This document shows positions 2,385-20,876 of a stretch of 64,000 nt of DNA, one piece after another; positions within the stretch are counted from its first letter, which is position 1, and every line of letters starts with the position of its first letter. The translations under genes were made by a program, and so were the position numbers. Under the pieces are notes generated by a model. It was not told where the DNA came from, did no database searches, and worked only from the letters and a program-made list of their open reading frames with translations. Origin of the DNA: Candidatus Dormibacteria bacterium (lineage in GTDB: Bacteria; Chloroflexota; Dormibacteria; Aeolococcales; Aeolococcaceae); contig JBEKXW010000009.1 of the NCBI GenBank assembly GCA_049511615.1, forward strand, positions 12,703 to 76,702, in the 5' to 3' direction.

Positions 2385-3434
2385 TCAGCCTGCCCCGACG
2401 CTGGCGGCCCCGTGAGCGGGATCCCGCTGCCGGGCGGGGGACAGCATCCCTTCCAGGTGGTCGATGAGCTCCTCGAGAACCTCGGGCTGGAGCACCAGCT
2501 GGCGACGCCCACCCTGGCTGCGGTTGGCCACGATCCCCGCGTCGCGCAGGACCTTCACATGGTTGCTGACCGTGGGCTGGGCCAGCGCGAAGAGCTCGGC
2601 CAGCTCGCTGACCGTGCTCGGGGCCGTGCGGAGCACCTCGACCATGGCCAGCCGGGTCGGGTCCGAGATGGTCTTCAGGCGTCGCGCCAGGATCTCGGTG
2701 CGGGCCCGCGCCTCGGCCCCGCTGCCCTCGGCGCGCACCCCGATCATCACCGTCCCGGGCAGGTCGGCCAGCGAGCCCAGGTGGGCGAAGTAGGAGGGGA
2801 CCACCGCCACGATCCCCCCGGTGGGGAGCGAGGCGACCAGGTCCTCGAGGAGCCGGCCCTCCGGCTTGTAGGTGCTGCGGGCGACCTCCTGCCACGGGGC
2901 GCCCCGGTGCTGGATCTCGCGCCGGGCCGCGACCGCCGCCTCCACGGAACGCAGGCCGTTCCGCATCCAGTCCGATCGGACGGCGGACCAGACGTCGCGC
3001 ACCATCTCCACGAAGGCGCGGCGGGTCTCGGGCGACGAGCGCAACCGGGCCAGGCGGTTCCTCATCGCCACCCTGTCCTCGGGCGTTTCCGAGGCGAGCC
3101 GCAGGTCCACCGGTGCATCGGCGCAGAGGCTCTCGAGCCGGCCCAGCACCTCCTCGGCATCGAGCGAGAAGAGCAGCCCCCCGTGGTGGGCGAGGATGCC
3201 CACCTCCATCGAGCCGCTGCAGTCGGTCGCTTCCTCCGTGCCCCAGAAGGTGCGCACCCGCTCGCCCAGCTGGGGGGATTCGGCGTAGACCCTGCCGAGG
3301 GTGGCGTGGTCGCGGCGGAACTCGGGTCGCGAGGCGGCATGCAGGACCCAGTCCAGCTCGGACGCGACGGAACCGCCCACCACCACGTCGGGGGACGGTT
3401 GCTCCGATGCGGGCTGCTCGTGATAGAAGGGCAT
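2385..3434 (-). CDS. ArsR-family transcriptional regulator with a ~250-aa N-terminal extension (DUF5937-like) and a C-terminal winged HTH
   Basis: C-terminal ISDPTRLAMVEVLRTAPSTVSELAELFALAQPTVSNHVKVLRDAGIV is an HTH_20/ArsR motif. ATG at 3434 checked on the sequence. Confidence 0.8.
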   Translation of the reverse strand: MPFYHEQPASEQPSPDVVVGGSVASELDWVLHAASRPEFRRDHATLGRVYAESPQLGERVRTFWGTEEATDCSGSMEVGILAHHGGLLFSLDAEEVLGRLESLCADAPVDLRLASETPEDRVAMRNRLARLRSSPETRRAFVEMVRDVWSAVRSDWMRNGLRSVEAAVAARREIQHRGAPWQEVARSTYKPEGRLLEDLVASLPTGGIVAVVPSYFAHLGSLADLPGTVMIGVRAEGSGAEARARTEILARRLKTISDPTRLAMVEVLRTAPSTVSELAELFALAQPTVSNHVKVLRDAGIVANRSQGGRRQLVLQPEVLEELIDHLEGMLSPARQRDPAHGAASVGAG

Positions 3435-3794: not shown

Positions 3795-3995
3795 TCAGCG
3801 GGCGCGGGCCGTCCAGCGGAGCACGAGGTACACCGCCAGCGCGATCAGCCCCAGGACCACCACCGTCTTGATCAGGAACATGATCACCCCGGCGGGCCAG
3901 CCGAGGATGACGTAGGCGAGGATCACCGCGATGACGGCGGTGACGATGATCGTGAGGGCGTGATGCGGCTGGAGCCGAGCCGGGGAGGTGCTCAT
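3795..3995 (-). CDS. Small hydrophobic membrane protein (66 aa, 2 TM)
   Basis: ORF with two clear transmembrane helices, transcribed divergently from the trx operon. Confidence 0.4.
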   Translation of the reverse strand: MSTSPARLQPHHALTIIVTAVIAVILAYVILGWPAGVIMFLIKTVVVLGLIALAVYLVLRWTARAR

Positions 3996-4110
3996 GGCCA
4001 GATCATGTCACGTTCCCGATCGGACCGCCGCAGCCACTGCCGGGAGACGCCGGTGGCGGCGCGTGCGCCGGTGGCGGCCGGCCACGCCGGGTGGGGCCGG
4101 AGTTGTTCGG

Positions 4111-4126
4111 ATACCCCTGGGGGTAT
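4111..4126. promoter_or_regulatory. Perfect palindrome ATACCCC-T-GGGGGTAT, a CsoR/CstR-type operator upstream of trx
   Basis: Seen in the sequence ~50 bp upstream of the trx ATG. Operators of the CsoR family are GC-rich pseudo-palindromes of the ATACC...GGTAT type. Confidence 0.5.
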
Positions 4127-4176
4127 ATAGTCGGGAACGCAAGAACCCCGCACGGGGGCATCAACTCGAGGTGGCC

Positions 4177-4554
4177 ATGTCGACGATCGCGCTGAGTGGA
4201 AAGAGCTTCTCCGAGACGGTGAGCCGGGATGGGATCGTCATGGTCGACTTCTGGGCGGCCTGGTGCGGGCCGTGCCGCGCCTTCGCGCCGGTGTTCGAGG
4301 CGGCGGCCACCGAGCACCCGGACATCGTCTTCGCCAAGGTCGACACCGAGGCGGAGCCGGCCCTCTCGAGGTCACTCGGGATCATGTCCATCCCCACCCT
4401 GATGATCTTCCGGGACGGCATCCTGGTCTTCGAACAGCCCGGTGCCCAGCCCGCGGCGGTGCTGGCCAGGCTGATCGACGCTGTCAGGGACCTGGACATG
4501 GACGCGGTCCGCCAGGAGATGACCGCCCCTGGAGCGGTCGCGGAGACGGCATGA
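4177..4554 (+). CDS. trxA: Thioredoxin
   Basis: WCGPC active site (DFWAAWCGPCRAF), ~125 aa, GAGG RBS 6 nt upstream of the ATG. Confidence 0.9.
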   Translation: MSTIALSGKSFSETVSRDGIVMVDFWAAWCGPCRAFAPVFEAAATEHPDIVFAKVDTEAEPALSRSLGIMSIPTLMIFRDGILVFEQPGAQPAAVLARLIDAVRDLDMDAVRQEMTAPGAVAETA

Positions 4555-4985
4555 CCGCCACCGCATCGACGAGCCGCCGGTTGCGGGTCGACCACGAGCG
4601 CGTCGACCGGTTCCGGATCACGGTCCGCCAGCACACCCTCTGGGTCGACCAGCCCGTGCTCGACGGCGGCGAGGACGGGGCCGCCACCCCCACCGAGCTG
4701 TTCGTCGCCAGCCTCGCCTCGTGCGTGGCCTTCTACGTCCGCCGCTTCCTCGCGCGGCACGGGCTGCCGGTGGCCGGGCTGTCCGTCATCGCCGACTACG
4801 ACATGGCCGCCCAGCCGGCCCGGGTGGGTGAGGTCCGCCTGCAGGTGCAGCTGGCGGGCGATCTGCCGCCGGAGCGGCGGGCGGCGCTGCTTGCGGTCGC
4901 CGCGCGCTGCACTGTCCACAACACCGTGCAGCACGGTCTCCCGGTCCGGATCGCGCTGGCCGCACCGGTCTCGGACCGGGCATGA
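4551..4985 (+). CDS. OsmC/Ohr-family peroxiredoxin-like protein
   Basis: ATGA overlap with the trx stop. OsmC-like sequence with conserved Cys (ASLASC..., AARCTVHN). Confidence 0.8.
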   Translation: MTATASTSRRLRVDHERVDRFRITVRQHTLWVDQPVLDGGEDGAATPTELFVASLASCVAFYVRRFLARHGLPVAGLSVIADYDMAAQPARVGEVRLQVQLAGDLPPERRAALLAVAARCTVHNTVQHGLPVRIALAAPVSDRA

Positions 4986-5037: not shown

Positions 5038-5307
5038 GTGAAGCTGGACGATGCGGCCGTCACCGAGGTGCTGCGGCGGCTGCGGCGGGCTGACGGCCAG
5101 ATCCGCGGCGTCATCCGCATGCTCGAGGAGGGCCGCGACTGCGTGGAGGTGGTGACCCAGCTCGCGGCGGTGTCCAGCGCCCTCGATCGGGCGGGTTTCC
5201 GGTTGATCGCGACCGGCCTCCAGCAGTGCGTGGCCGCGCGCGAGGGAGGCGAGGCTCCCACCATCGACGAGGGGCAGCTGGAGAAGCTCTTCCTATCCCT
5301 GGCGTGA
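5038..5307 (+). CDS. CsoR/RcnR/CstR-family (DUF156) metal- or persulfide-sensing repressor
   Basis: ~90 aa with IRGVIRMLEEGRDCVEVVTQL...LQQCVAA. It has two Cys at the CsoR ligand positions but no His at the C-4 position, i.e. the CstR/FrmR-like subtype. GTG start at 5038. Confidence 0.8.
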   Translation: MKLDDAAVTEVLRRLRRADGQIRGVIRMLEEGRDCVEVVTQLAAVSSALDRAGFRLIATGLQQCVAAREGGEAPTIDEGQLEKLFLSLA

Positions 5308-5718
5308 GCCTGGGGTGGCGCTCGCGACCGCCGGCTCGGCGACGGGGAGCGGATCCCGGGGACGGGTCTCCGGATGGCGGTCGAGCACGATCTGGTGGAC
5401 GATGTCGCATGCCTGCGCGATGCGCGGCTCCGCCAGCGAGTAGTAGACGGTGGTCCCGCCGCGCCGGGTGGCGACCAGCCCCGCGTGCCGCATCACTGAC
5501 AGATGCTGGCTGGCGTTGGGGAGGCTCATCCCCACGGTTTCGGCCAGGTCGCTGACGCAGCGCTCACCGCTCCTCAGCGCCTGGAGGATCATCAGGCGCT
5601 TGGGGTCGGTGAGGACCTTGCACATCTCGGCGTGAAGCCGGAAGGCCTCGGCGTTCCGCCGCCGGTCGTCGGCCTGCGCGCTGCTCGGCTCATCCGTCAT
5701 GGTCGCCATCGTAGCCAT
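5293..5718 (-). CDS. ArsR-family regulator with SqrR/BigR-like two-cysteine arrangement
   Basis: HTH_20 core (LTDPKRLMILQAL...VSDLAETVGMSLPNASQHLSVMRHAGLV). Cys in helix 2 (HAEMCKVL) and near the C-terminus (AQACDIV). ATG at 5718 verified. Confidence 0.8.
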   Translation of the reverse strand: MATMATMTDEPSSAQADDRRRNAEAFRLHAEMCKVLTDPKRLMILQALRSGERCVSDLAETVGMSLPNASQHLSVMRHAGLVATRRGGTTVYYSLAEPRIAQACDIVHQIVLDRHPETRPRDPLPVAEPAVASATPGSRQG

Positions 5719-5720
5719 TA

Positions 5721-5736
5721 TTGCGTCATTTCGCAA
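5721..5736. promoter_or_regulatory. Palindrome TTGCG-N6-CGCAA (site 1), immediately upstream of the ArsR2 start
   Basis: Read from the sequence; the same motif recurs at 5922-5937. Confidence 0.4.
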
Positions 5737-5921
5737 GTAACCAGCCAGCGGACGGATTCCGTCCCGTGACGGGCCGCCATGGACGGCGGGGTCCCCAGGC
5801 ATGCCTGTGCCAGACAGCCCGCGCCGATAAGGCCGTTGGGCACGGCTGGCGGTGGGCAGGAGTTCGGGGGGCAGAGGACGTTGCGCCCTGGAAGGCGCCG
5901 CGAGAAGCGCGGAGACTTTGG

Positions 5922-5937
5922 TTGCGTATAAGCGCAA
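5922..5937. promoter_or_regulatory. Palindrome TTGCG-N6-CGCAA (site 2), ~80 bp upstream of the dsrE-like gene
   Basis: Read from the sequence. It lies in the divergent intergenic region between ArsR2 and the dsrE-tusA-hdr operon. Confidence 0.4.
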
Positions 5938-6017
5938 GGACGCAACAAACGTGGCGACCCTCACCCGGTCGGGTGGCGGGCGGTGAGAGCCGGGCGACTA
6001 CGGAGGTGACGACGCAG

Positions 6018-6611
6018 ATGGTGGACAGCATGGCGACATCGACGACGGCCATGGCGGAGCGCACCGGCCCGGCGCTGACCGAGGAGGACGTGCGGCGGAT
6101 CGTGAGGTCCGAGATGGAGCGCGCCGTCGCCCGGGACCCCGGGAGCGGGAGGGCGACGATCATCGCCTCGAAGGGGACCCTCGACTTCGCCTACCCTCCC
6201 CTGATCCTCGCCACCACCGCGGCCGCCTCGGGGATGCAGACCTCGGTCTTCTTCACCTTCTACGGCCTGAACATCATCCACAAGGACTTCGAGCGCCTGC
6301 TCAAGGTCTCGCCGCTCGGCAACCCGGCGATGCCGATGCCGGTCACGATGCCGAACTTCGTTCTCGGGCTCCCCGGGATGGGCCCGATGGCGACCGGGAT
6401 GATGAAGGCGAAGTTCCGGGGCAAGCACGTCGCCTCCATCCGCGAGCTTCTCGCCACGGCACGGGAGCTCGACGTCCGGCTGATCGCGTGCCAGATGACC
6501 ATGGACGTCTTCGGTTACAAGCCCGAGGACTTCATCGAGGGAGTCGAGTTCGCCGGCGCGGCGGCCTTCCTCGCCGAGGCGCGTAAGGCGCACCTCACTC
6601 TCTTCATCTAG
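6018..6611 (+). CDS. DsrE/DsrF-like (DsrE2-type) sulfur-relay family protein
   Basis: Motif ATIIASKGTLDFAYPPLILATTAAASGMQTSVFFTFYGLNII is typical of the DsrE_2 family. First gene of the operon. Confidence 0.7.
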   Translation: MVDSMATSTTAMAERTGPALTEEDVRRIVRSEMERAVARDPGSGRATIIASKGTLDFAYPPLILATTAAASGMQTSVFFTFYGLNIIHKDFERLLKVSPLGNPAMPMPVTMPNFVLGLPGMGPMATGMMKAKFRGKHVASIRELLATARELDVRLIACQMTMDVFGYKPEDFIEGVEFAGAAAFLAEARKAHLTLFI

Positions 6612-7293: not shown

Positions 7294-7560
7294 ATGTCGA
7301 CGGTGCTGACCGAGGCGGATGTGGCGGCGCTCGGCGTCGCCAAGGTCGTGGACGCGCGCGGCACGGGATGCCCAGGGCCGCTGCTCGAGGCCAAGAAGGC
7401 GATGGCGGGCATCGCCGTCGGCGATGTGATCGAGCTCTGGTCGAGCGACCCCCAGACCAAGGCCGACGTGGCGGCCTGGGCCGGCAAGGTTGGCCACGGG
7501 TTCCTCGGTGCGGTCGCCGCCCAGGGGTACGACCGCGTCCTCGTCCGCCGCGCCCGGTGA
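7294..7560 (+). CDS. tusA: TusA-like sulfur carrier protein (second copy)
   Basis: 88 aa with the CPxP motif (TGCPGPLL). GAGGAGA RBS. Confidence 0.85.
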   Translation: MSTVLTEADVAALGVAKVVDARGTGCPGPLLEAKKAMAGIAVGDVIELWSSDPQTKADVAAWAGKVGHGFLGAVAAQGYDRVLVRRAR

Positions 7561-7576
7561 GCTGAGGCCTGGTCGC

Positions 7577-8005
7577 GTGGTCCAGCCCGCGCCCTGCGGC
7601 GTCGAGGCGGGACCGGCGCGCGCGCCCCGGGTTCTCGTCTTCTCCACCAACGCCATCTCCGATCCCGGCATCGATCTGGCGGGGAGCTCGCACATGCACT
7701 ACTCACCCGAGGTGGTCGTCATCAGCCTGCCGTGCACCAGCGGGGTGCGGCCGGGGTGGATCGTCCACGCCCTCGAGCGGGGCTTCGATGGCGTCTTCAT
7801 CGCCGCCGACGGCGAGGAGTGCGGCTACCTGCCGGACTGCACCGCGCGCTCGTCGCGCATCGTCCAGGCGGCCCAGGCGCTGATGGCGGAGCGGGGGATC
7901 GACGGGCGCAGGGTGAAGATGGCGGCCATCTGCTCGGTGTGCGCCGAGCCGTTCACCCGCCAGGTGCGCGGCTTCACCGAGTCCCTGGCGGCGCTGGAGG
8001 GGTAG
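7577..8005 (+). CDS. MvhD/FlpD-like (methyl-viologen-reducing hydrogenase delta subunit family) protein
   Basis: RVLVFSTNAISDPGIDLAG...VVVISLPCTSGVRPGWIVHALERGFDGVFIAADGEECGYLPDC matches the MvhD fold. GTG start at 7577. The usual N-terminal CxxC is replaced by S/I. Confidence 0.65.
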   Translation: MVQPAPCGVEAGPARAPRVLVFSTNAISDPGIDLAGSSHMHYSPEVVVISLPCTSGVRPGWIVHALERGFDGVFIAADGEECGYLPDCTARSSRIVQAAQALMAERGIDGRRVKMAAICSVCAEPFTRQVRGFTESLAALEG

Positions 8006-8011
8006 GGGGCG

Positions 8012-10717
8012 ATGGAGGTGTCGACGGCCTACGACGCGCTGGTCATCGGCAGCGGGATCGGCGGCATGGAGGCGGCGATCAAGCTCGGCGACATGGGCTA
8101 CCGGGTGCTGGTGGTCGAGAAAGAGCCGTCGATCGGGGGCAAGATGATCCTGCTCAGCAAGGTCTTCCCCACCCTGGACTGCGCCAGCTGCATCTCGACG
8201 CCGAAGATGGCGGCGACCGCGCACCACCCCAACGTCACCGTTCTGACCCAGGCGGAGGTGACCCGCATCCGCGACCGTGATGGCGGCGGCTTCCACGCCA
8301 CCGTGCATCGGTCGGCGCGCTTCGTCGACGAGTCCCTGTGCACCGGTTGCCGGCTCTGCGAGATGGCCTGCACGGTCGCGGTCCCCGACCAGTTCAACGG
8401 CGAGATGGTCTCGCGGCGTGCCGCCTACATCCCCTTCCCCCAGGCGATCCCACAGAAGGCGCTCATCGAGCGCGCCGGTAGCTCGCCCTGCAGCTTCACC
8501 TGCCCCGCCGGGGTCAAGGCGCACGGCTACGTCTCGCTGGTGCGCAGCGGCAGGGACCAGGAGGCATTCGCCCTGGTGGCGGAGACGACCCCTCTGGTGG
8601 GCACCCTCGGCCGTGCCTGCTACGCCCCCTGCGAGGCGGAGTGCACCCGGGGCAGTCTGGAGGGCCCGGTGTCGATCCGCCGTCTCAAACGCTTCGTCGC
8701 CGACGCTCACTACGCGCTGCCCGAGCCCCCGGAGGGCGCGCGGCCGGCGCCGAACGGGAGGCGCATCGCTGTGGTCGGATCCGGACCCGCCGGCCTGACC
8801 GCGGCCTGGCAACTGGCGCGCGGTGGCTACGGGGTCACCATCTTCGAAGCAGCGCCCGCGCCGGGTGGCGCCCCCCGCCTCGCCATCCCCGGCTACCGCC
8901 TGCCCGTCGAGGTGATCGAGCGCGACATCCGCAACGTGACCGACCTGGGTGTCGAGATCGTGACCGGCACCCGCGTCGATGACCTCGCGGCATTCCGGGC
9001 GCAGGGGTACGACGCCGTGCTGGTGGCCACCGGGACACCGCGGCCCGCCCGCCTGCGCGTGCCTGGCGAGGACTCGCTCGACGGGATCCGCGCCGCGCTC
9101 GACCTCCTGCGCGACATCCGGCTCGATCACGCCCCGGACCTCGGCGGCAGGGTCGTCGCCGTCATCGGCGGGGGCAACGTCGCCATCGACGCGGCGCGCA
9201 GCGCCCGCCGCCTCGGCGCCGCGACGGTGCATCTCGTCTGCCTCGAGCAGCGCGCCGAGATGCCCGCCTACGCGTGGGAGGTCGACGAGGCGCTCGCCGA
9301 GGGCGTACGGCTGCACGACGGGTGGGGGATCGCGGGATTTCGTGGCGGCACCGAGGTGGAGGGGGTCGAGCTCAAGCGCTGCGTCGCGGTGTTCGACGCC
9401 GAGCACCGGTTCAGCCCGCGCTATGACGAGACCGCTGGTGAGGTGCTCGGCTGCGACGCGGTCGTCGTCGCCATCGGCATGGGTGCCGACACCGCGGCGT
9501 TCCCAGCGCTCGCGCCGGCGGGGGCGCGCGCCCTTCAGGCGGATGCCGAGCACCTTCAGACCGCGGTGCCATGGGTCTTCGCCGCCGGCGACGCCGTGAC
9601 CGGGCCCACCACCATCGCGGAGGCGGTCGGGCAGGGCCGCCGCGCCGCCTTCATGATCGACCGCTGGCTCCGCGATCTTCCCCTCACGGGCTTCGACGAA
9701 CCCCTGCCCAAGGTCGACGGGGCCGCGGTGCTGGCCCGGCAGCGCAGCCACAGCCGTCGCGCGCCACTCGCCGCCCGCCCTCAGCTGACCGAGGCGCCCG
9801 CCGGCTTCGTCGAGCTCGAACCCGCGCTCAGCGAGGACCAGGCACGCGAGGCCGCCGGTCGCTGCCTGGACTGCGGGGTCTGCTCGGAGTGCCACGAGTG
9901 CCTGGCCGCCTGCCCCGCGGCGGCGATCGACCTGGGCATGCGGGCGTCGGACGTCGAGGTCGCGGTGGGATCGGTCGTCGTCTCCACCGGCTACCGCATC
10001 TTCCCGGCCGATCTCAAGCCCGAGTACGGGTACGGGCGCTTCAAGAACGTGATCACCGGGACCCAGATGGAGCGCCTGCTGGCGCCGACCCGTCCCTACA
10101 ACACCGTGCTCCGGCCGGGCGACGGGAAGGTGCCGGAGCGGATCGGCTACGTGATGTGCACGGGTTCGCGTGACCAGACCGTGGGCAACCCGCTCTGCTC
10201 CAAGTTCTGCTGCATGTACTCGCTCAAGCAGAACCAGCTGATCATGGGCGCGCTCCCCCTCGCCGACGTGACCGTCCACTACATCGATATCCGGGCCGCC
10301 GGCAAGGGGTACGACGAGTTCTTCGAGCAGGCGAAGGGGATGGGGACGACCTTCGTCAAGGGCCGCGTTGCCGGCATCACCGAGAGGCCGGACGGCGACC
10401 TTGTCCTCCGCTACGAGGACATCGATCACGGCGGGGTGATCACCGAGGCGGAGTACGACCTCGTGGTCCTGGCGGTGGGCGTCCAGCCCAATCCGGAGGC
10501 CGCCCAACCCTTCGGGCCCGGTGAGCTGGTCCTGGACGAGCACGGCTACGTGGCCGAGGTCGACGAGGATCTCAACCCGGGCGCGACCAGCATCCCCGGC
10601 GTCTTCGTGGCGGGGGCAGCATCCGGCCCGCGGGACATCCCGGAGTCGATCCTCCATTCCGGTGCCGCCGTCGCCCAGGCCGCCGCCCACCTCGAGCGGC
10701 GGAGGGTGGCGTCGTGA
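8012..10717 (+). CDS. HdrL-like large heterodisulfide reductase subunit A homologue with an embedded GltD/NfnB-like NAD(P)H-binding module and ferredoxin domains
   Basis: HdrA hallmarks: N-terminal FAD site DALVIGSGIGGMEAA, FPTLDCASCI, and C-terminal YVMCTGSRD...NPLCSKFCCMY. Inserted GltD-like region: CSFTCPAGV...CYAPCEAEC, IAVVGSGPAGLTAAW, VVAVIGGGNVAIDAAR. Additional 2x[4Fe-4S] motif CLDCGVCSECHECLAACP. 901 aa. Confidence 0.85.
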   Translation: MEVSTAYDALVIGSGIGGMEAAIKLGDMGYRVLVVEKEPSIGGKMILLSKVFPTLDCASCISTPKMAATAHHPNVTVLTQAEVTRIRDRDGGGFHATVHRSARFVDESLCTGCRLCEMACTVAVPDQFNGEMVSRRAAYIPFPQAIPQKALIERAGSSPCSFTCPAGVKAHGYVSLVRSGRDQEAFALVAETTPLVGTLGRACYAPCEAECTRGSLEGPVSIRRLKRFVADAHYALPEPPEGARPAPNGRRIAVVGSGPAGLTAAWQLARGGYGVTIFEAAPAPGGAPRLAIPGYRLPVEVIERDIRNVTDLGVEIVTGTRVDDLAAFRAQGYDAVLVATGTPRPARLRVPGEDSLDGIRAALDLLRDIRLDHAPDLGGRVVAVIGGGNVAIDAARSARRLGAATVHLVCLEQRAEMPAYAWEVDEALAEGVRLHDGWGIAGFRGGTEVEGVELKRCVAVFDAEHRFSPRYDETAGEVLGCDAVVVAIGMGADTAAFPALAPAGARALQADAEHLQTAVPWVFAAGDAVTGPTTIAEAVGQGRRAAFMIDRWLRDLPLTGFDEPLPKVDGAAVLARQRSHSRRAPLAARPQLTEAPAGFVELEPALSEDQAREAAGRCLDCGVCSECHECLAACPAAAIDLGMRASDVEVAVGSVVVSTGYRIFPADLKPEYGYGRFKNVITGTQMERLLAPTRPYNTVLRPGDGKVPERIGYVMCTGSRDQTVGNPLCSKFCCMYSLKQNQLIMGALPLADVTVHYIDIRAAGKGYDEFFEQAKGMGTTFVKGRVAGITERPDGDLVLRYEDIDHGGVITEAEYDLVVLAVGVQPNPEAAQPFGPGELVLDEHGYVAEVDEDLNPGATSIPGVFVAGAASGPRDIPESILHSGAAVAQAAAHLERRRVAS

Positions 10718-12504
10718 GCAGCGCCGGGCTCCGCCCCGATCCCGCGAAGCCCGGCATCGACGCCGGTCCCCGACGGAGGATCGGCGTCTACGTCTGCCAG
10801 TGCGGCGGCAACATCTCCGACCACGTCGACGTCGAGCGGGTGGTGGAGGCGGCCAGCGCGGACGCCGACGTGGTGGTGGCGCGGGACGCGATGTTCACCT
10901 GCTCTGATGCCACCCAGCAGGAGATCGCTGCCGACATCGCCGCGCAGCACCTCGACGGGCTGGTGGTCGCTTCCTGCTCGCCGAAGCTCCACACCTTCAC
11001 CTTCCGGGGCGTGGCCCGGCGGGCCGGGCTCAACCCCTACGAGTACACCCAGGTCAACCTCCGCGAGCAGTGTTCGTGGACGCACACCGACGACCCCGAG
11101 GGGGCCACCCGGAAGGCGATCCGCCTGGTGCACGCCGGCATCGCCCGGACCCGGCTCACCGAGCCGCTGCAGCCGACCACGGTCGAGACGGTGCCCCGGG
11201 CGCTGGTCATCGGCGGCGGCGTGGCCGGGATGCGGGCGGCGATCGGGCTGGCCGAGATCGGCCTGGGTGTCACCCTGGTCGAGCGGGAGCGCAAGCTCGG
11301 TGGCTGGGTGGCGGGGTTTGGCGCCACCTTCCCTCATGGAACGCGCGGCGCCCGCTTGGTCGCGCGCCTGGCCGCGGAGATCCAGCGCCAGCCGGCGATC
11401 ACCGTCCTCACCGGTGCCGAGGTGGTCGCCAAGTCCGGGACCTATGGCAACTACCAGGTCACGGTGGCGGCCGGTGGCGAATCACGGACGCTCGCGGTCG
11501 GCCAGATCGTGGTGGCGACCGGCTTCGACAGCTACGAGCCGGAGGCCGGCGAGTTCGGTTACGGCATCCAGGGGGTGCTGACTCTGCCCGAGTTCCGGCG
11601 GCTGGTCGACCAGGGGCACGGTCCGCTCGCCTACCGTGGCCGGGCGGTCCGGACCATCGCCTACATCTACTGCGTGGGCAGTCGCGACGCCGAGCGTGCC
11701 TACTGCTCGCGCTTCTGCTGCACCGCCGCGGTGCACGCGTCGCTGCTCGCGGCGGAGCGGGATCCCGAGATCCGCCACTACCACCTCTACCGGGATCTCC
11801 GCACCTATGGGAAGAACGAGGCGATGCTCACCGAGTCCCGCCGGCGCGGCTCGGTGTACCTGAAGTTCGCCGATGACGAGCCGCCCCAGGTGGCCGGCGA
11901 CGGCGACGGACTTCACCTCACCGTCCGCGACCTGCTGACCGCGGGCGAGGAGCTCCGCGTCGATGCCGATCTCGTGGTCCTAGCCACCGGGATGGTTCCA
12001 CGGCGGAACCCGGGCCTGGTCGGCGCGCTCAAACTCCCGGTCGGCAGGGACGGGTTCTTCAACGAGATCCACCCCAAGCTGCGACCGGTGGAGACCGTCG
12101 TCGACGGCGTGATGATCGCCGGCGCCTGCCAGGGGCCCAAGACGATGGCGGAGAGCGTCGCCTCGGGGCTCGCCGCCGTCACCCAGGCGGCCGCGGTGCT
12201 GAAGCGGGGAGTGGCCGAGCTCGACCCCCAGGTGGCCACGGTCAGCACCTCGGCCTGCACCGGGTGTGGGGTCTGTCTCGACGCCTGCCCGTTCGGCGCC
12301 ATCTCGCTCGCGGCCGCCGGGACGGCGGCCGGGGAGGCGATCTCCTCTCCTGCGGCGATGGTCGCGACCATCGACGCCGCCGGGTGCAAGGGATGCGGTG
12401 GCTGCGCACCCGTCTGCCCCCAGGACGCCATCGACCTCAAGGGCTACACCGACGCCCAGGTGCGGGCGATGATCGATGGGCTCCTCGCCGGGGTGCCGGC
12501 ATGA
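10714..12504 (+). CDS. hdrA: Heterodisulfide reductase subunit A (HdrA) with N-terminal MvhD-like Cys domain and C-terminal 2x[4Fe-4S] ferredoxin
   Basis: GTGA overlap with the hdrL stop. FAD motif ALVIGGGVAGMRAAIGLA, HdrA signature YCVGSRD...YCSRFCC, ferredoxin CTGCGVCLDACP and CKGCGGCAPVCP. The N-terminal YVCQCGGNIS...MFTCSD...LVVASCS is MvhD-like. Confidence 0.85.
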   Translation: MSSAGLRPDPAKPGIDAGPRRRIGVYVCQCGGNISDHVDVERVVEAASADADVVVARDAMFTCSDATQQEIAADIAAQHLDGLVVASCSPKLHTFTFRGVARRAGLNPYEYTQVNLREQCSWTHTDDPEGATRKAIRLVHAGIARTRLTEPLQPTTVETVPRALVIGGGVAGMRAAIGLAEIGLGVTLVERERKLGGWVAGFGATFPHGTRGARLVARLAAEIQRQPAITVLTGAEVVAKSGTYGNYQVTVAAGGESRTLAVGQIVVATGFDSYEPEAGEFGYGIQGVLTLPEFRRLVDQGHGPLAYRGRAVRTIAYIYCVGSRDAERAYCSRFCCTAAVHASLLAAERDPEIRHYHLYRDLRTYGKNEAMLTESRRRGSVYLKFADDEPPQVAGDGDGLHLTVRDLLTAGEELRVDADLVVLATGMVPRRNPGLVGALKLPVGRDGFFNEIHPKLRPVETVVDGVMIAGACQGPKTMAESVASGLAAVTQAAAVLKRGVAELDPQVATVSTSACTGCGVCLDACPFGAISLAAAGTAAGEAISSPAAMVATIDAAGCKGCGGCAPVCPQDAIDLKGYTDAQVRAMIDGLLAGVPA

Positions 12505-12737
12505 GCCGCGACATTCGCGAGGTGATGCGCGACGAGCCCCTGGTCCGCGGCCGGCTGGTGGAGCTCCTGCTCCGCGAGGGGCCGCTGACCGTGCCGGAGG
12601 CGGCGGCGCGTGGCGGCTGGCCCGAGGACGAGGTGATGGTCTGGATGATGGGCCTGCGCAAGTACGGCCACGTCGCCGAGGAGAAGGCCAGCGCCGGCGA
12701 GGAGCGGTTCCGCTACGCGGCGGTGAGACGGTCGTGA
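12501..12737 (+). CDS. Small hypothetical protein (78 aa), possible winged-helix-like, translationally coupled between hdrA and hdrC
   Basis: ATGA overlap with the hdrA stop and GTGA overlap with the hdrC start. No recognisable family. Confidence 0.45.
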   Translation: MSRDIREVMRDEPLVRGRLVELLLREGPLTVPEAAARGGWPEDEVMVWMMGLRKYGHVAEEKASAGEERFRYAAVRRS

Positions 12738-13033
12738 GCGCGCTGGTCTCTCCGCACCGCCTTCGCGATCTTCGGGCCATGGGTCCGTTCGACGCCGAGG
12801 CCTGCATGAACTGCGGCGTCTGCACCGCCATCTGCCCGCTCGGGATGAGCCTGATGCCGCGCCTGCTGTTTCGCTACGTCGTGCTCGGCCTCGACGATCG
12901 GGTCATGGAGTCGAAGGACGCGATCTTCTCGTGCTTGCTCTGCCGGGCCTGCGAGGCGAGCTGCCCCGCCGGGGTGCACATCACCGAGGACGTGCGGCTG
13001 CTCCGCCACTGGCTGCTCGAGGAGGGACGCTGA
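12734..13033 (+). CDS. hdrC: Heterodisulfide reductase subunit C (HdrC), 2x[4Fe-4S] ferredoxin-like
   Basis: CMNCGVCTAICP and CLLCRACEASCP motifs; ~100 aa; GTG start overlapping the upstream stop. Confidence 0.8.
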   Translation: MSALVSPHRLRDLRAMGPFDAEACMNCGVCTAICPLGMSLMPRLLFRYVVLGLDDRVMESKDAIFSCLLCRACEASCPAGVHITEDVRLLRHWLLEEGR

Positions 13034-14109
13034 TGCCGCTGCCCATCCCCGACGTGGTGGGGATCCTGGCGGACAACCTTCGCCGGCGGGGATCCGTGCT
13101 CCCCATACCGGCGCGCCGGGCGACCCGCTGGGCGCGCGATCTCGGCATTCCCCGCGGCGGCGAGACCGTCCTCTACACGGGCCAGATGTACCAGCTGATC
13201 CCCTACATCGAGAGGCTGGTGCGTCTCGAGCAGCGGCTCGGCGACTCGCCACTGGCCCGGTTCAGCGGCCTGGCCCGCCGGGCGAACCGGCTGGTCAACG
13301 GGGTCGCCCTGGTGGCGCGGCCGCCGGTCGCGGAGCGGCGAGAGTACGACCGTGTCCCCGCCAACGTGGCGCGGCTGCTCACCCGGTCCGGGGTCGCCTT
13401 CGGCTGCCTGTACGAGGACGACCTCTACAGCGGGGCGCTCGCCCACGATCTCGGTGCCGACGAGGCGGTTGCCGCTCACGCGCGTCGGGTCGCCGGGATC
13501 CTCCGCCGGCACGGGGTCCGCGAGGTGATCACCATCGACCCCCACACGACGACGATGCTGCGCACCGTCTATCCGCGGCTGGTCGAGGGGTACGCGGTGC
13601 GGGTGCGCAGCTACCTCGAGGTGCTGGCCGAGCGCCGGCTGCCGGTGACCACCCCGCTGACCGGAGCCGTCGTCCTCCACGACTCCTGCGTCTACGCCCG
13701 CTGCGAGGGGATCGTCGAGGAGCCGCGGCGGCTGCTCGCCGCCGCAGGCCTCACCGTCCGCGACCCGGAGAGCTCGCGCATCCGCACCTGGTGCTGCGGT
13801 GGTCCGGCGGAGTCGCTCTTCCCCGCCACCGCCCTGGCGGTCGCCACCCAGCGCGTGGATCAGCTGCGGGCCGTGGCCCCTGACTGCGTCACCATGTGCC
13901 CGATCTGCCTGGTGAACCTGGGCAAGGCTGCGGACGGGAAGCTGCGCCTACGCGACATCTCCGACTGCCTCGTCGATGCGATCGAGCCGGAGGCCCGGCC
14001 CGGAGGGCCCAGCCGGGACAATGAGAAAGGGTCGGATGCCCGCCCGCCCGGGGTTTCCACACGGGGGCGCGGAACCGGGCCGGCGGGCGCCCGGGCTGCA
14101 CGCGTGTGA
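13033..14109 (+). CDS. hdrB: Heterodisulfide reductase subunit B (HdrB), CCG-domain protein
   Basis: TGATG overlap with the hdrC stop. C-terminal CCG domain HDSCVYARC...TWCCGGP...CVTMCPICL. The N-terminal CCG-like domain lacks the cysteines. Confidence 0.8.
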   Translation: MPLPIPDVVGILADNLRRRGSVLPIPARRATRWARDLGIPRGGETVLYTGQMYQLIPYIERLVRLEQRLGDSPLARFSGLARRANRLVNGVALVARPPVAERREYDRVPANVARLLTRSGVAFGCLYEDDLYSGALAHDLGADEAVAAHARRVAGILRRHGVREVITIDPHTTTMLRTVYPRLVEGYAVRVRSYLEVLAERRLPVTTPLTGAVVLHDSCVYARCEGIVEEPRRLLAAAGLTVRDPESSRIRTWCCGGPAESLFPATALAVATQRVDQLRAVAPDCVTMCPICLVNLGKAADGKLRLRDISDCLVDAIEPEARPGGPSRDNEKGSDARPPGVSTRGRGTGPAGARAARV

Positions 14110-14179
14110 CGCGTCCGGCATCGCTCCGTCACCAGCTCCTACGATCACCCCACCACCTCGGGCGCGACGATACCCAGCT

Positions 14180-14362
14180 ATGAGCGTGCGCCAGACTCTG
14201 GAGCGGTTGCGGGCCCTGATCGAGCGTGAACGGGGTCAGGGGATGGTCGAATACGCCCTGATCCTGGTCCTGATCGCCATCGTGGTCGTCCTCATCCTGC
14301 AGGTGGTCGGCAACCAGGTGGCCAACGCCTTCTCCAACGTCAGCAGCGGTCTCGGGAGCTGA
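14180..14362 (+). CDS. Flp/Fap-family pilin (60 aa)
   Basis: Flp motif GQGMVEYALILVLIAIVVVLI after a short leader. ATG at 14180 verified. Confidence 0.6.
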   Translation: MSVRQTLERLRALIERERGQGMVEYALILVLIAIVVVLILQVVGNQVANAFSNVSSGLGS

Positions 14363-14582
14363 CCCGGGGGTCTTGAGGGGGTCCCTCGAGGCGCCGGATC
14401 TCCAGCCGCCTCGGTGTCAGCCTGGCTCCGCCCGCCCCGGGGCGGTGCAGGAGCGAGGACCTTCGGCTCTAGCGTATCGGCGTCACCAATCCTTATTTTT
14501 GTGATGCCGCCGTCACCTGGAGGAGCGCCCACCGTGCCGAACCGCGCAGACGCCACCGCGCCCCATTGCCGGAGCTGAGACA

Positions 14583-16216
14583 TTGACCCCTCGCCGACTT
14601 GAGCTGACACCGCTTCCCGACCTGCTCCACGGGGCGCCCCGCGCCGGCGCCGTGAGGACCCGCCGTCCCGTCTACGTCGACCTGCTGCCTCCCTGCAACG
14701 CCGGCTGCCCGGCGGGCGAGAACATCCAGGCCTGGCTCGGATTCGCGCGCGATGGGAAGCACGAGGAGGCCTGGCGCCAGCTGGTCGCCGACAACCCGCT
14801 CCCCGCCATCCACGGGCGGGTCTGCTACCACCCCTGCGAGGACGTCTGCAACCGCAAGGAGCTGGACAGCTCGGTCTCGATCCACGCGGTCGAGCGCTTC
14901 CTGGGCGATCTCGCCCTGGAGCGGGGCTGGGCGTTCCCCGCGCCCCCCGCGCCGAGTGGGAAGCGGGTGCTGGTGATCGGGGCCGGCCCCAGCGGGCTCT
15001 CCGCCGCCTACCAGCTGGCCCGGCAGGGGCACCAGGTGGAGATCCGGGACCTGAGCTCCGAGGCGGGCGGGATGATGCGCTACGGCATCCCCGCCTACCG
15101 GCTGCCCCGCGACGTGCTGGCCGCTGAGATCGCCCGGGTCGAGGCGCTCGGGGTGCGCTTCGTCCGCGAGCACCGGGTGACCGACTTGGCCGCCGAGAGG
15201 GCCGAGGGCGGCTTCGACGCCGTCTTCGTGGCGGTCGGTGCCCACCTCTCCAAGCACGTCGACATCCCGGCCCGGGACGCGGGGCGGATCTACGACGCGG
15301 TGTCGTTCCTCCGCGACGTCGCCGCCGGTGGCGAGCCGGTGGTCGGCCGCCGGGTCGCCGTCTACGGCGGCGGCAACACCGCGATGGACGCCGCCCGGGT
15401 CGCCAAGCGGCTGGGTGCCAGCGACTCGATGATCGTCTATCGCCGCAACCGGGAGAGGATGCCGGCCCACGAGGATGAGGCCGACGCGGCCGAGCGCGAG
15501 GGGGTGCGGATCAACTGGCTGCACACCATCACCGCCTTCGAGGGACCGGAGCTGACCGTCGAGGTGATGGAGCTGGACAAGACCGGCTTCCCGCAGCCCA
15601 CCGGCCGGTTGGAGAAGCTGGCCGCCGACACCCTCATCCTGGCCGTCGGACAGGACGCCGACACCGGGTTCCTGCGCCGCGTGCCGGGGGTGGAGTTCAA
15701 GAGCGACGGCACGGTCATCGTCTCGGCCTCGATGATGACCGGCTGCCCGGGCGTGTTCGCGGGCGGGGACATGGTTCCCGCCGAGCGGACGGTCACCGTG
15801 GGCGTCGGCCACGGGAAGAAGGCCGCCCGGTTCATCGGCCAGTACCTGCAGGGGGCGGAGGCGGGCGTGGCCGCCAAGCACGACCTGGCCAGCTTCGACC
15901 GGCTCCACCCGTGGTACTTCGCCGACGCCCATGCCCGGCCCCAGCCGGAGCGGGAGCCGGGGGAGCGGGTGGCGGACTTCGCCGAGATCGTCGCCGGCCT
16001 GAGCGAGCAGGCGGCGGTCTTCGAGGCGCAGCGCTGCCTCTCCTGTGGCAACTGCTTCGAGTGCGACGGCTGCCTGGGCTCCTGCCCGGAGGATGCGGTG
16101 GTCAAGCTCGGGGTGGGGCACCGATACCGGTTCGACTACGACCGCTGCACCGGCTGCGGGACCTGCTTCGAGCAGTGCCCCGTGCATGCCATCGACATGG
16201 TCGGGGAGCCTCAGTG

Positions 16217-16217
<1 letters not shown>
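14583..16217 (+). CDS. Glutamate-synthase-small-subunit-like (GltD/PreT/SudA family) NAD(P)H flavoprotein with C-terminal 2x[4Fe-4S] ferredoxin domain
   Basis: N-terminal Fe-S motif CNAGCPAGENIQ...CYHPCEDVC, FAD/NAD sites VLVIGAGPSGLSAAY and VAVYGGGNTAMDAAR, C-terminal CLSCGNCFECDGC...CTGCGTCFEQCP. TTG start at 14583; a downstream GTG is also possible. Confidence 0.8.
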
Positions 16218-19830
<3,613 letters not shown>

Positions 19831-19831
<1 letters not shown>

Positions 19832-20835
19832 TGAAGCTCGACACCACCTACCTGGGCCTGGCCCTGTCGAATCCCCTGGTGGCCTCCGCCGGCCCGCTGT
19901 CGCGTAGCGTCAGCGGCATCCGGCGGCTGGCCGCGGCCGGCGTGGGCGCGGTCGTCCTGCCGTCGCTCTTCGAGGAGCAGATCCGGCGCGAGGCGGAGAG
20001 GGACGCCAACCTCGTCGAGGCGGGCAGTGAGAGCTTCGCCGAGGCGCTCACCTACATCCCCCTCCCGGTCTCCGACGGTCAGCCCCACCAGTACCTCAGC
20101 CTCATCGAGCGCGCCCGGGCGGCGGTCGCGATCCCGGTGATCGCGAGTCTCAACGGCGCGACGGCCGGCGGGTGGGCGGAGTACGCCACCTCCATGCAGG
20201 AGGCGGGCGCCTCCGCTATCGAGCTCAACATCTACTACCTGCAGGGTGACCCATTCGACCCCGGCCGCACGGTGGAGGAGCGGTACGTCGAGATCCTGCG
20301 CACGGTGCGAGCGGCCGTCACCATCCCGATCGCCGTGAAGCTGGGCCCCTACCTCAGCTCGGTGGGGGAGATGGCCACCCGCCTTCACGAGGCGGGCGCC
20401 GACGGCCTGGTCCTCTTCAACCGCTTCATGCAGACCGACATCGATGCCGCCACCCTCACGGTGAGCGCGGGGCTCCCACTCTCCACGCCCGCCGAGGCCA
20501 CCCTGCCCCGCGCCTGGATCGCCCGCCTGCGCGACAAGGTTCCGCTGTCCCTCGCTGCCACCAGCGGCGTGGAGAGCGCCACCGACGTGGCCGCCTACCT
20601 GCTGGCCGGGGCCGACGTGGTCATGACCACCTCGTCCCTGCTCCGCCATGGCCCCGAGCACGCCGCCGAGCTGATCGACGGACTGCAGGCCTGGATGGAG
20701 CGCAAGGGCCTCCAGAGCCTCGACCAGGTGCGCGGGCGGCTCTCGATGGCGGCTGCCGCCGATCCGTCGGCGTACGGGCGGTCCAGCTACCTCACCACCA
20801 TCGAGCAGGCGACCCGGGTCTACGCCCCCAGCTGA
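19831..20835 (+). CDS. Dihydroorotate-dehydrogenase-like (PreA/DHOD class 1 family) FMN protein without a ferredoxin tail
   Basis: TIM-barrel DHOD-like signature (LSNPLVASAGP..., AIELNIYY, VKLGPY, LVLFNRF). 1-nt overlap with the por stop. Confidence 0.8.
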
Positions 20836-20876
20836 GCACGGGACGGGAGGCCCGCGGGGTCGCCTACGATCGCCCG

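Follow-up and report, generated by a model that had tools for sequence, protein, structure and literature searches.

The DNA considered here, a stretch of 64,000 nucleotides from a Candidatus Dormibacteria bacterium (contig JBEKXW010000009.1; hereafter the window), carries a gene for an ArsR repressor that is divergent from genes for DsrE2, TusA, DsrE, a second TusA, FlpD/MvhD and HdrA/C/B-like proteins. It seems somewhat probable that the ArsR protein is a thiol-switch repressor with a new cysteine topology, which represses its own gene and the sulfur operon and responds to reactive sulfur as the inducer, and we consider this the best overall explanation of the locus. The protein would act as a homodimer and belong to a widespread subfamily of ArsR/SmtB-type repressors that is so far uncharacterised, and its reduced dimer would bind the palindrome TTGCG-N6-CGCAA at two places. 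The proximal site would overlap the -35 element and the spacer of the gene's own, probably leaderless, promoter and lead to autorepression, and binding at the distal site, a composite one some 80 bp before dsrE2, would repress the DsrE2-TusA-DsrE-TusA-FlpD-HdrACB-like operon. Release is proposed to take place by thiol chemistry, with Cys33 modified either alone or bridged to Cys104. In this mechanism Cys33 and Cys104 would most likely be persulfidated or joined in a di- or polysulfide when cytoplasmic sulfane sulfur rises, in a manner similar to SqrR and BigR at other positions of the protein, and the trigger in the Dormibacteria host would be the sulfane sulfur carried by the controlled pathway.

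A preliminary description of the locus had suggested a SqrR/BigR-like ArsR protein with two cysteines that controls both itself and the sulfur genes. Its palindromes and gene arrangement were exact, whereas the number and the placement of the cysteines were wrong. Correspondingly, autoregulation and control of the sulfur operon gain strong comparative support from the conservation of the putative operators, while membership in the SqrR/BigR group is refuted.

Predicted operators and promoter of the repressor gene

The gap between the ArsR gene and dsrE2 is 299 bp (5719-6017), and the outline given earlier, a divergent dsrE-tusA-hdr operon across a gap of about 300 bp, was right, with its genes now identified by Pfam. 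The repressor gene and the gap hold the following features:

5293-5700, minus strand: ArsR/SmtB-family repressor gene from the inferred ATG (5293-5718 in the database call); Pfam HTH_5 and NCBIfam matches
5708-5713, minus strand: putative -10 box TACGAT of the ArsR promoter, read from the sequence
5721-5736, unstranded: predicted proximal operator TTGCGTCATTTCGCAA (in the ArsR direction TTGCGAAATGACGCAA); exact TTGCG-N6-CGCAA match, 3 nt from ATG 5718
5880-5885, unstranded: extra half-site GTTGCG in the conserved block GGACGTTGCGCCCTGG (alignment A2); inverted partner of CGCAAC at 5941-5946
5922-5945, unstranded: predicted distal composite operator TTGCG-TATAAG-CGCAA-GGA-CGCAA; full palindrome at 5922-5937 and, shifted by 8 bp, one more half-site
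6003-6009, plus strand: dsrE2 ribosome-binding site GGAGGTG

The palindrome TTGCG-N6-CGCAA occurs exactly twice in the window, where a mean of 0.02 is expected, and none of 100 dinucleotide-preserving shuffles contained two or more copies. As had been noted before, one copy (5721-5736) abuts the ArsR start and the other (5922-5937) lies about 80 bp before dsrE; the full distal palindrome is 81 nt upstream of the dsrE2 ATG and the whole composite operator 73-96 nt upstream of this start codon. Allowing one mismatch revealed no further site in the window. With two mismatches the window has 19 sites, namely the two exact ones, an overlapping degenerate neighbour at 5930 and 16 others, a number close to chance by our estimate, and none of the 19 is near the thioredoxin-OsmC-CsoR genes of the window. 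The single pentamers are also found in the gap, which holds three of the 26 TTGCG and three of the 35 CGCAA of the window.

Comparison with related genomes supports the same two sites. Eight syntenic Dormibacterota loci (L001-L008) have an ArsR gene whose product is 69-87% identical, opposite DsrE2-TusA-DsrE-TusA-flavoprotein, and when the conservation of the palindromes was examined in them, both copies were found in all eight at equivalent positions with no or one mismatch (CGCAA is sometimes TGCAA). The DNA between the palindromes is poorly conserved and the sites are 162-259 bp apart, edge to edge, among these loci, and the conservation of the palindromes amid diverged spacer DNA is a phylogenetic footprint. 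The distal block is near-invariant over about 75 bp in nine loci (alignment A2). In each of the 17 loci compared whose ArsR protein is at least 60% identical, a palindrome with at most one mismatch immediately precedes the ArsR gene; nine of these loci come from other lineages and have other neighbours (L050, L051, L052/L053 and L054-L059; 60-78% identical). Since such a match has an expected frequency of about 3e-5 per position, its presence within about 100 bp upstream in 18 of 18 loci is not due to chance. Because the motif is kept in nine loci with unrelated neighbours, it tracks the ArsR protein and not the operon or the CsoR-like gene that adjoins the ArsR gene in the window. The product of this CsoR-like gene was considered as the binder of the palindromes and ruled out, as the motif accompanies the ArsR gene also in loci that have no CsoR-like gene.

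The composite design of the distal site is also seen elsewhere. In L052, TTGCA-CCA-TTGCG-CAAGTA-CGCAA (10988-11011) is situated about 100 bp in front of an OsmC gene that stands apart, 4.5 kb from the ArsR gene, and in L059 the ArsR gene itself is preceded by the same layout of a half-site, 3 nt and a full palindrome. The L052 site is evidence for a regulon beyond the adjacent operon and for a recurring composite operator. It is thus predicted that TTGCG-N6-CGCAA is the own operator of this ArsR family, and the protein almost certainly binds there.

The proximal operator probably has a second role, since its left half TTGCGA appears to double as the -35 element of the ArsR promoter. The order in the window, read in the ArsR direction, is TTGCGA, 17 nt, TACGAT, 7 nt and the ATG at 5700. 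A strict scan for TTGCGN, 17-18 nt, TAnnnT, 6-10 nt and an in-frame start found this layout in 10 of 18 loci, and variants of it were seen by eye in four more (L003-L006); in those of L003-L005 the box, which reads TACAAT, TAGAAT or TATAAT, is farther from the operator and 6 nt ahead of a GTG. The conserved spacing suggests a leaderless ArsR mRNA, autorepressed by a bound repressor that would cover the -35 element and the spacer. The database start, ATG 5718, lies between the proximal operator and the TACGAT box, and with a leaderless layout it would precede the point where transcription probably begins; the protein therefore probably starts at ATG 5700 and has 135 amino acids (aa) instead of the 141 aa counted from ATG 5718.

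On the dsrE2 side, two candidate promoter elements were rejected. TATAAG, the spacer of the distal palindrome, was tried as a -10 box; it is TATAGG or ATACAG in relatives and has no fitting -35 element. For TTGCGT as a -35 element, no -10 box was found. The leader of dsrE2, about 80 nt long, contains an inverted repeat, CTCACC...GGTGAG (5953-5990), which the terminator scan reported as a weak minus-strand hairpin (5965-5953). This repeat is not conserved in L003-L008 and has no match in Rfam, and the Rfam search of 5600-6100 found no RNA family.

Cysteines and family of the repressor

The ArsR gene reported in the preliminary description was confirmed by Pfam HTH_5 (59.5 bits, cutoff 22) and by the NCBIfam ArsR/SmtB model NF033788 (95.2 bits, cutoff 55). 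The AlphaFold model (mean predicted local distance difference test score, pLDDT, 89) has the topology a1-a2-a3-a4-b1-b2-a5 of an ArsR-type winged helix-turn-helix, and its top Foldseek matches are all ArsR proteins, 2kko being the first. Among solved structures the best sequence match is Rv0081 (E 3.4e-14); SqrR and BigR are found in the PDB with E values of 2.6e-13 and 2.3e-12 and a Foldseek probability of 1.0. The closest relatives of the protein are encoded in metagenome-assembled genomes of Candidatus Dormibacterota. Residues are numbered here by the 141-aa form (ATG 5718, MATMATMTDEP...), from which the numbers of the AlphaFold model are obtained by subtracting 6; helices 1, 2, 3 and 5 of the model span 7-30, 33-42, 49-56 and 92-108.

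The protein has three cysteines and not two as thought earlier: C33 ('AEMCKVL') in helix 1, C54 ('GERCVSDL') at the start of helix 3 and C104 ('AQACDIV') in the middle of helix 5. Helix 2 of the model, where one cysteine had been placed, has none. Alignment with SqrR and BigR was the check on which the earlier assignment depended, and the cysteines did not fall into register. The phmmer alignment to SqrR (6o8l/6o8k) sets RLMIMCYLASGEKSV against RLMILQALRSGERCV, and both phmmer and MAFFT place SqrR C41 opposite Gln46. SqrR C107 falls opposite Leu112 when the phmmer alignment, which stops three residues earlier, is extended without gaps. C104 is thus 8 residues before the position equivalent to C107, and SqrR has Leu at the position of C33 and Val at that of C104. 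None of 121 aligned sequences, which are the query and 120 homologues, has a cysteine at positions 40-49 or at 105-119, and neither does any of the best 150 wider cluster representatives at the column of SqrR C41. The BigR equivalog model NF040642 gives 64.2 bits, below its curated cutoff of 155, and ArsR proteins that are not such sensors (Rv0081, NolR, Mb0332) match as well as or better than SqrR and BigR in both sequence and fold. At the level of family membership, a place in the SqrR/BigR subfamily is refuted by these alignments, while the protein may still work in a SqrR-like way as a dithiol switch for sulfane sulfur in spite of its separate subfamily.

The earlier statement that a CxC metal site is missing was correct. 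The helix 3 sequence is C54-V-S56, so that C54 takes the first cysteine position of the arsenic and metal motif, which is C-V-C in Escherichia coli ArsR, and Ser56 the second. The positions of the helix 5 ligand set D/H-x-H ... H-x2-E/H of SmtB, CzrA and NmtR, placed by SmtB/NmtR alignment offsets, are E97, R99, I110 and D113, and both histidines are missing.

Conservation in the family singles out two of the cysteines. In the 121 aligned sequences C33 and C104 are each present in 120 and H108 in 93, and C54 is variable (28). In an alignment of 48 sequences H29, C33 and C104 are invariant, D105 is conserved in at least 90% and the recognition helix 'LPNASQHL' is near-invariant. The signature of the subfamily reads H29-A-E-x-C33-K (helix 1) and A-C104-D105-x-x-H108 (helix 5), and the combination of H-A-x-x-C-K, A-C-D, L-P-N-A-S-Q-H-L and a palindrome directly upstream marks it as a new one. 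C33 and C104 replace hydrophobic residues, which are Phe or Leu in helix 1 and Val or Leu in helix 5 of Rv0081, SqrR and NmtR; such buried positions are compatible with the two cysteines facing each other and are no proof of it.

When 1.84 billion cluster representatives were scanned in full with HMMER, 1,240 matched below 1e-10, and the best 150 of these were divided by their cysteines:

C33 and C104: 75 of 150, with no further cysteine in 46 of them
C33 only: 51 of 150, with no second cysteine anywhere in the protein in 30 of them
C104 only: 12 of 150
Neither C33 nor C104: 12 of 150

Given this split, the helix 1 cysteine is the core conserved feature and the helix 5 cysteine a frequent addition. 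More distant ArsR proteins, 40-48% identical, were found in L010-L042, which are mostly from DPANN archaea with some Planctomycetota and others. Most of them keep His29, Cys33 and Asp105 and have Phe at 104, being one-Cys forms; as the contig scan that retrieved these loci used peptide patterns including 'LHAEMCKV', the retrieval is biased and the universality of His29 and Cys33 in them is not used as evidence. Two two-Cys relatives from Nitrospirota were also retrieved, and one of these two (L027) lies near genes judged TauE-like and SelD-like by their N-terminal sequences.

Presumed target genes, neighbourhoods and the possible inducer

The genes on the other side of the gap are all on the plus strand:

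6018-6611, plus strand: DsrE2-like sulfur carrier, first gene of the presumed target operon; Pfam DrsE_2, 167.7 bits; syntenic in L001-L008
6657-6908, plus strand: TusA; Pfam TusA (the two TusA genes score 87.6 and 62.2 bits); syntenic in L001-L008
6865-7281 (listed open reading frame, ORF), plus strand: DsrE; Pfam DsrE, 60.5 bits; syntenic in L001-L008
7294-7560, plus strand: second TusA; Pfam TusA; syntenic in L001-L008
7490-14109, plus strand: Hdr-like redox module; Pfam matches
7490-8005 (ORF), plus strand: FlpD/MvhD-like protein
8012-10717, plus strand: 901-aa flavoprotein/FeS fusion with HdrA-like and GltD-like domains
10714-12504, plus strand: 596-aa HdrA-like protein
12476-13033, plus strand: HdrC-like ferredoxin
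12931-14109, plus strand: HdrB-like CCG protein

The Hdr-like module is presumed to be co-transcribed with dsrE2, judging from the shared strand and tight spacing. The cluster is atypical. FlpD and the large HdrA fusions set it apart from the textbook sHdr, so it may be doubted whether it is a canonical sHdr, and it looks more like an electron-bifurcating module of the Hdr/Mvh type fed by sulfur carriers than like the canonical sHdr-LbpA system, a comparison for which no search for a lipoate-binding protein was made in the cluster. Beyond HdrB there are genes for a GltD-like protein (14583-16217) and a pyruvate:ferredoxin oxidoreductase (within 15911-19831), and farther along the same cluster (7490-22073, plus strand) for a dihydroorotate-dehydrogenase-like protein and a major facilitator superfamily (MFS) transporter. 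A 128-aa ORF (13976-14362, plus strand) that overlaps the end of the HdrB-like gene has a borderline Pfam match to Flp/Fap pilin (32.7 bits, cutoff 32.2) and is probably a spurious ORF in GC-rich DNA.

Outside the syntenic group, homologues of the repressor gene have these neighbours:

L050: ArsR homologue adjoining a Hdr/FlpD cluster
L051: ArsR-DUF302-OsmC-TauE-rhodanese
L052/L053: ArsR-DUF302-rhodanese
L054: ArsR-OsmC
L055: ArsR-glutaredoxin; divergent hemerythrin and Psr-like molybdoenzyme
L056: ArsR-DUF302-OsmC-rhodanese
L057: ArsR-DUF302-OsmC-rhodanese-EamA
L058: ArsR-DUF302-OsmC; divergent TauE
L059: ArsR-glutaredoxin-Cpn10-superoxide dismutase (SOD)

In Bathyarchaeia (L016) a two-Cys relative, 48% identical, is followed by DsrE2-TusA. 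The association with sulfurtransferase and sulfur-oxidation genes is thus found in the window, in its eight relatives and, in the form of rhodanese, TauE and DUF302, with distant homologues. No metal transporter, metallothionein or metallochaperone was present in the ten homologue loci fetched for gene context, and the neighbourhoods point to thiol and sulfur chemistry rather than to metals.

A different ArsR paralogue was seen on the soil contig L058 (1231-1605, minus strand), where it adjoins DsrE2-TusA-FlpD while the C33/C104-type ArsR gene of the same contig heads the DUF302-OsmC operon. The paralogue has Leu at the C33 equivalent, a cysteine at the start of helix 3 ('ERSCEV') and a second one at what by eye appears to be the C104 equivalent ('LAACGLM'), and may represent a third cysteine arrangement tied to sulfur-carrier genes.

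The other side of the ArsR gene in the window is occupied by genes of a related kind. A CsoR/RcnR-family gene (5041-5307, plus strand; Pfam Trns_repr_metal, 83 bits) faces the ArsR gene in convergent orientation, with a 15-bp overlap of the 3' ends, and directly upstream of the CsoR/RcnR-family gene are a thioredoxin gene (3988-4554, plus strand) and an OsmC-like gene (ORF 4263-4985, plus strand, with the true start probably later). OsmC is the gene most often found directly after this ArsR family in other phyla, and the link is kept in the window in a rearranged form. The CsoR-like protein has Cys-x29-Cys and a Gly in place of the ligand His of copper-sensing CsoR. At this position the 85-aa chain of 7mq1-7mq3, deposited as a copper-sensing CsoR and which we take to be Enterococcus faecalis CstR, has Asn in the alignment, and by these residues the CsoR-like protein is a candidate CstR-like persulfide sensor. 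Its gene adjoins the ArsR gene also in L001 and a partial ArsR match in L046, and is absent from L002. Farther away, a 349-aa protein (2385-3434, minus strand) has an ArsR-type helix-turn-helix in its C-terminal part (residues 258-302; HTH_5, 48 bits) and about 250 N-terminal aa without a Pfam match; it is encoded near the ArsR gene in L001 and L002 as well (79-85% identity).

The repressor could be a general thiol switch for oxidants or electrophiles, similar to OhrR, with Cys33 sensing and Cys104 resolving and the sulfur operon being one of several types of targets; we consider this the likeliest of the alternatives, though still rather unlikely. OhrR exists as one-Cys and two-Cys types, and this is mirrored by the split of the ArsR family, in which the representatives with C33 only include many single-Cys proteins. 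The direct neighbour is most often an OsmC/Ohr-family gene (L051, L054, L056, L057, L058), a second operator pair precedes OsmC in L052, one clade has glutaredoxin-Cpn10-SOD next to it, and thioredoxin and OsmC genes adjoin in the window. However, the operon in the window and in the eight relatives consists of the carriers DsrE2, TusA and DsrE and a Hdr-like complex, and rhodanese, TauE and DUF302 are neighbours typical of reactive-sulfur regulons, as known from the neighbourhoods of persulfide sensors (PMC10054925). A metal sensor with a new site between helices 1 and 5 is improbable. Here His29/Cys33 (H-x3-C) and Cys104/Asp105/His108 (C-D-x2-H) would make up a Cys2His-type site, and Cd(II), Cu(I), Ni(II) or Zn(II) bound there would release the protein from DNA; the i/i+4 spacing of His29/Cys33 and Cys104/His108 resembles a tetrahedral site, the residues are strongly conserved, and helices 1 and 5 form the dimer interface of ArsR proteins, which is the seat of the classical helix 5 metal sites (SmtB/CzrA). 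Nevertheless, many members have Gln, Asp, Arg or Gly in place of His108, and in the wider family Gln, Tyr or Arg can stand where His29 is. Of the four positions of the classical helix 5 site, as placed by the SmtB alignment offset, just two are of ligand type (E97, D113) while R99 and I110 stand for the histidines, and the lack of metal-related genes in the context loci and of the helix 3 CxC points the same way.

The protein might also be a repressor that works independently of a ligand, with structural cysteines and regulation that depends solely on how much of the protein is present or on a partner, for example the CstR-like neighbour. The buried, otherwise hydrophobic positions of C33 and C104 would agree with this, and the closest solved relatives (Rv0081 and Rv2034-type) have no known inducer site; still, purely structural positions would seldom keep cysteine specifically, along with His29 and Asp105, nearly invariant in different phyla, and the consistent thiol and sulfur gene neighbourhood argues for sensing, which leaves this explanation slightly less plausible than a metal sensor. 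A regulator with an iron-sulfur (Fe-S) cluster, in which two cysteines per protomer, four per dimer, bridge the cluster at the interface of helices 1 and 5 and couple Hdr operon expression to cluster, redox or sulfur status, would account for two near-invariant cysteines on both helices of the dimer interface and for an operon encoding many Fe-S proteins. It is very improbable given the large sister group with Cys33 only, often as the sole cysteine, which is unable to ligate a cluster in this way, and the contexts examined have no Fe-S assembly genes. Finally, a true persulfide sensor of the SqrR/BigR type, with an intraprotomer tetrasulfide between helices 2 and 5, is scarcely credible: SqrR and BigR are among the best PDB matches and the gene is associated with sulfur genes, but the canonical cysteine columns are empty, the BigR model falls far below its cutoff, Rv0081, NolR and Mb0332 match no worse, and the half-sites differ from ATTC-N8-GAAT.

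As for the thiol-switch repressor induced by reactive sulfur, several observations weigh against it. The generic sigma-70 scan of 5200-6100 called no promoter, and the dsrE2 promoter cannot be placed relative to the distal operator. Among the best 150 representatives C33 and C104 do not occur together above chance (75/51/12/12; odds ratio about 1.5), and for this reason C104 is not an obligate partner of C33; the counts indicate one-Cys and two-Cys subtypes rather than an obligate pair. The contexts with glutaredoxin, SOD, OsmC and HSP20 suggest general oxidative or thiol stress over sulfane sulfur, and the CstR-like neighbour could be an additional or alternative sulfur sensor. The sulfane-sulfur trigger is therefore the weakest step: we infer reactive sulfur as the inducer in preference to other oxidants, and a general oxidant sensor fits the OsmC, glutaredoxin and SOD contexts about as well.

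Related regulators and significance

The known reactive-sulfur sensors of the ArsR family all belong to one sequence cluster, defined by a cysteine pair in helices 2 and 5 (PMC10054925). This cluster 4 of the ArsR sequence similarity network (SSN) comprises SqrR of Rhodobacter capsulatus, BigR of Xylella and Acinetobacter, HlyU, YgaV, SoxR and sHdrR. The Dormibacteria protein resembles its members in the ArsR fold, the absence of CxC, the pairing with sulfur genes, the 16-bp two-fold operator span and one conserved helix 5 cysteine, and a dithiol switch is a probable further likeness. However, the pair of cluster 4 is formed by helix 2 and the C-terminal end of helix 5 (SqrR C41/C107, BigR C42/C108, HdsHdrR C50/C116), whereas that of the Dormibacteria protein consists of C33 in helix 1 and C104 in mid helix 5, with Gln and Leu at the canonical positions; in addition, the protein fails the BigR equivalog model and its family has one-Cys members too. 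The core of the SqrR operator is ATTC-N8-GAAT (bioRxiv 10.64898/2026.05.15.721447), and the half-sites TTGCG/CGCAA thus differ from ATTC/GAAT within an equal span of 16 bp.

Other thiol-based and structurally similar regulators provide further points of comparison. OhrR of the MarR family is likewise a homodimeric winged-helix protein with a cysteine in the N-terminal helix, an optional resolving cysteine and Ohr/OsmC neighbours; unlike it, the ArsR protein does not have the MarR fold, and OhrR senses organic hydroperoxides, so that the likeness is one of analogy and implies no homology. The best solved matches, the Rv0081/Rv2034-type ArsR proteins of Mycobacterium (SSN clusters 3 and 2), are compact and have no classical metal sites. 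Rv0081 (Phe, Leu) and 2kko (Gly, Phe), the Mycobacterium bovis ArsR-type protein that was the top Foldseek match, lack both cysteines in the alignments, and Rv0081 and Rv2034 are tied to the hypoxic response and not to sulfur carriers. RexT of Nostoc (SSN cluster 6), an ArsR-family H2O2 sensor, is a thiol-based redox sensor of the same general type and controls thioredoxin-type genes. It senses through two proximal cysteines in helix 3 (PMC10054925), whereas the helix 3 Cys54 of the Dormibacteria protein is not conserved.

Many ArsR genes beside Hdr-like sulfur clusters encode proteins without the canonical cysteine pair, which must work differently (Li et al. 2025, PMC12423496). The protein described here is of this kind, as it adjoins a Hdr-like cluster with DsrE and TusA and has no pair equivalent to Cys50/Cys116. 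While that paper only records the existence of such proteins (PMC12423496), a subfamily is defined here by conserved residues, an operator and a promoter layout. Our literature search, in which the journals were covered incompletely, found no characterised member or description of this ArsR subfamily.

The locus is a testable candidate for the ArsR regulators beside Hdr-like clusters that lack the SqrR cysteines, a gap pointed out in PMC12423496, and it offers a defined subfamily, two near-invariant cysteines, a 16-bp operator kept across phyla and a promoter layout predicted from the sequence. For Dormibacterota, of which the nine related genomes retrieved are all metagenome assemblies, it opens a way into the regulation of sulfur-carrier and Hdr genes. 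The operator motif could be used for predicting regulons in metagenome-assembled genomes. A wider reading, to which we give slightly less than an even chance, is that of a hitherto unrecognised thiol-switch ArsR class across phyla of both bacteria and archaea, of which this protein would be the first example, with Cys33, flanked by His29, as the sensing residue, an optional Cys104 that yields one-Cys and two-Cys subtypes like those of OhrR, an operator of its own and a leaderless, autorepressed promoter, and with sulfur-carrier/Hdr, rhodanese-DUF302-OsmC and glutaredoxin modules as its targets. If this is true, the class would be the missing type of regulator for those Hdr-like sulfur clusters in which the ArsR protein is without the SqrR cysteines.

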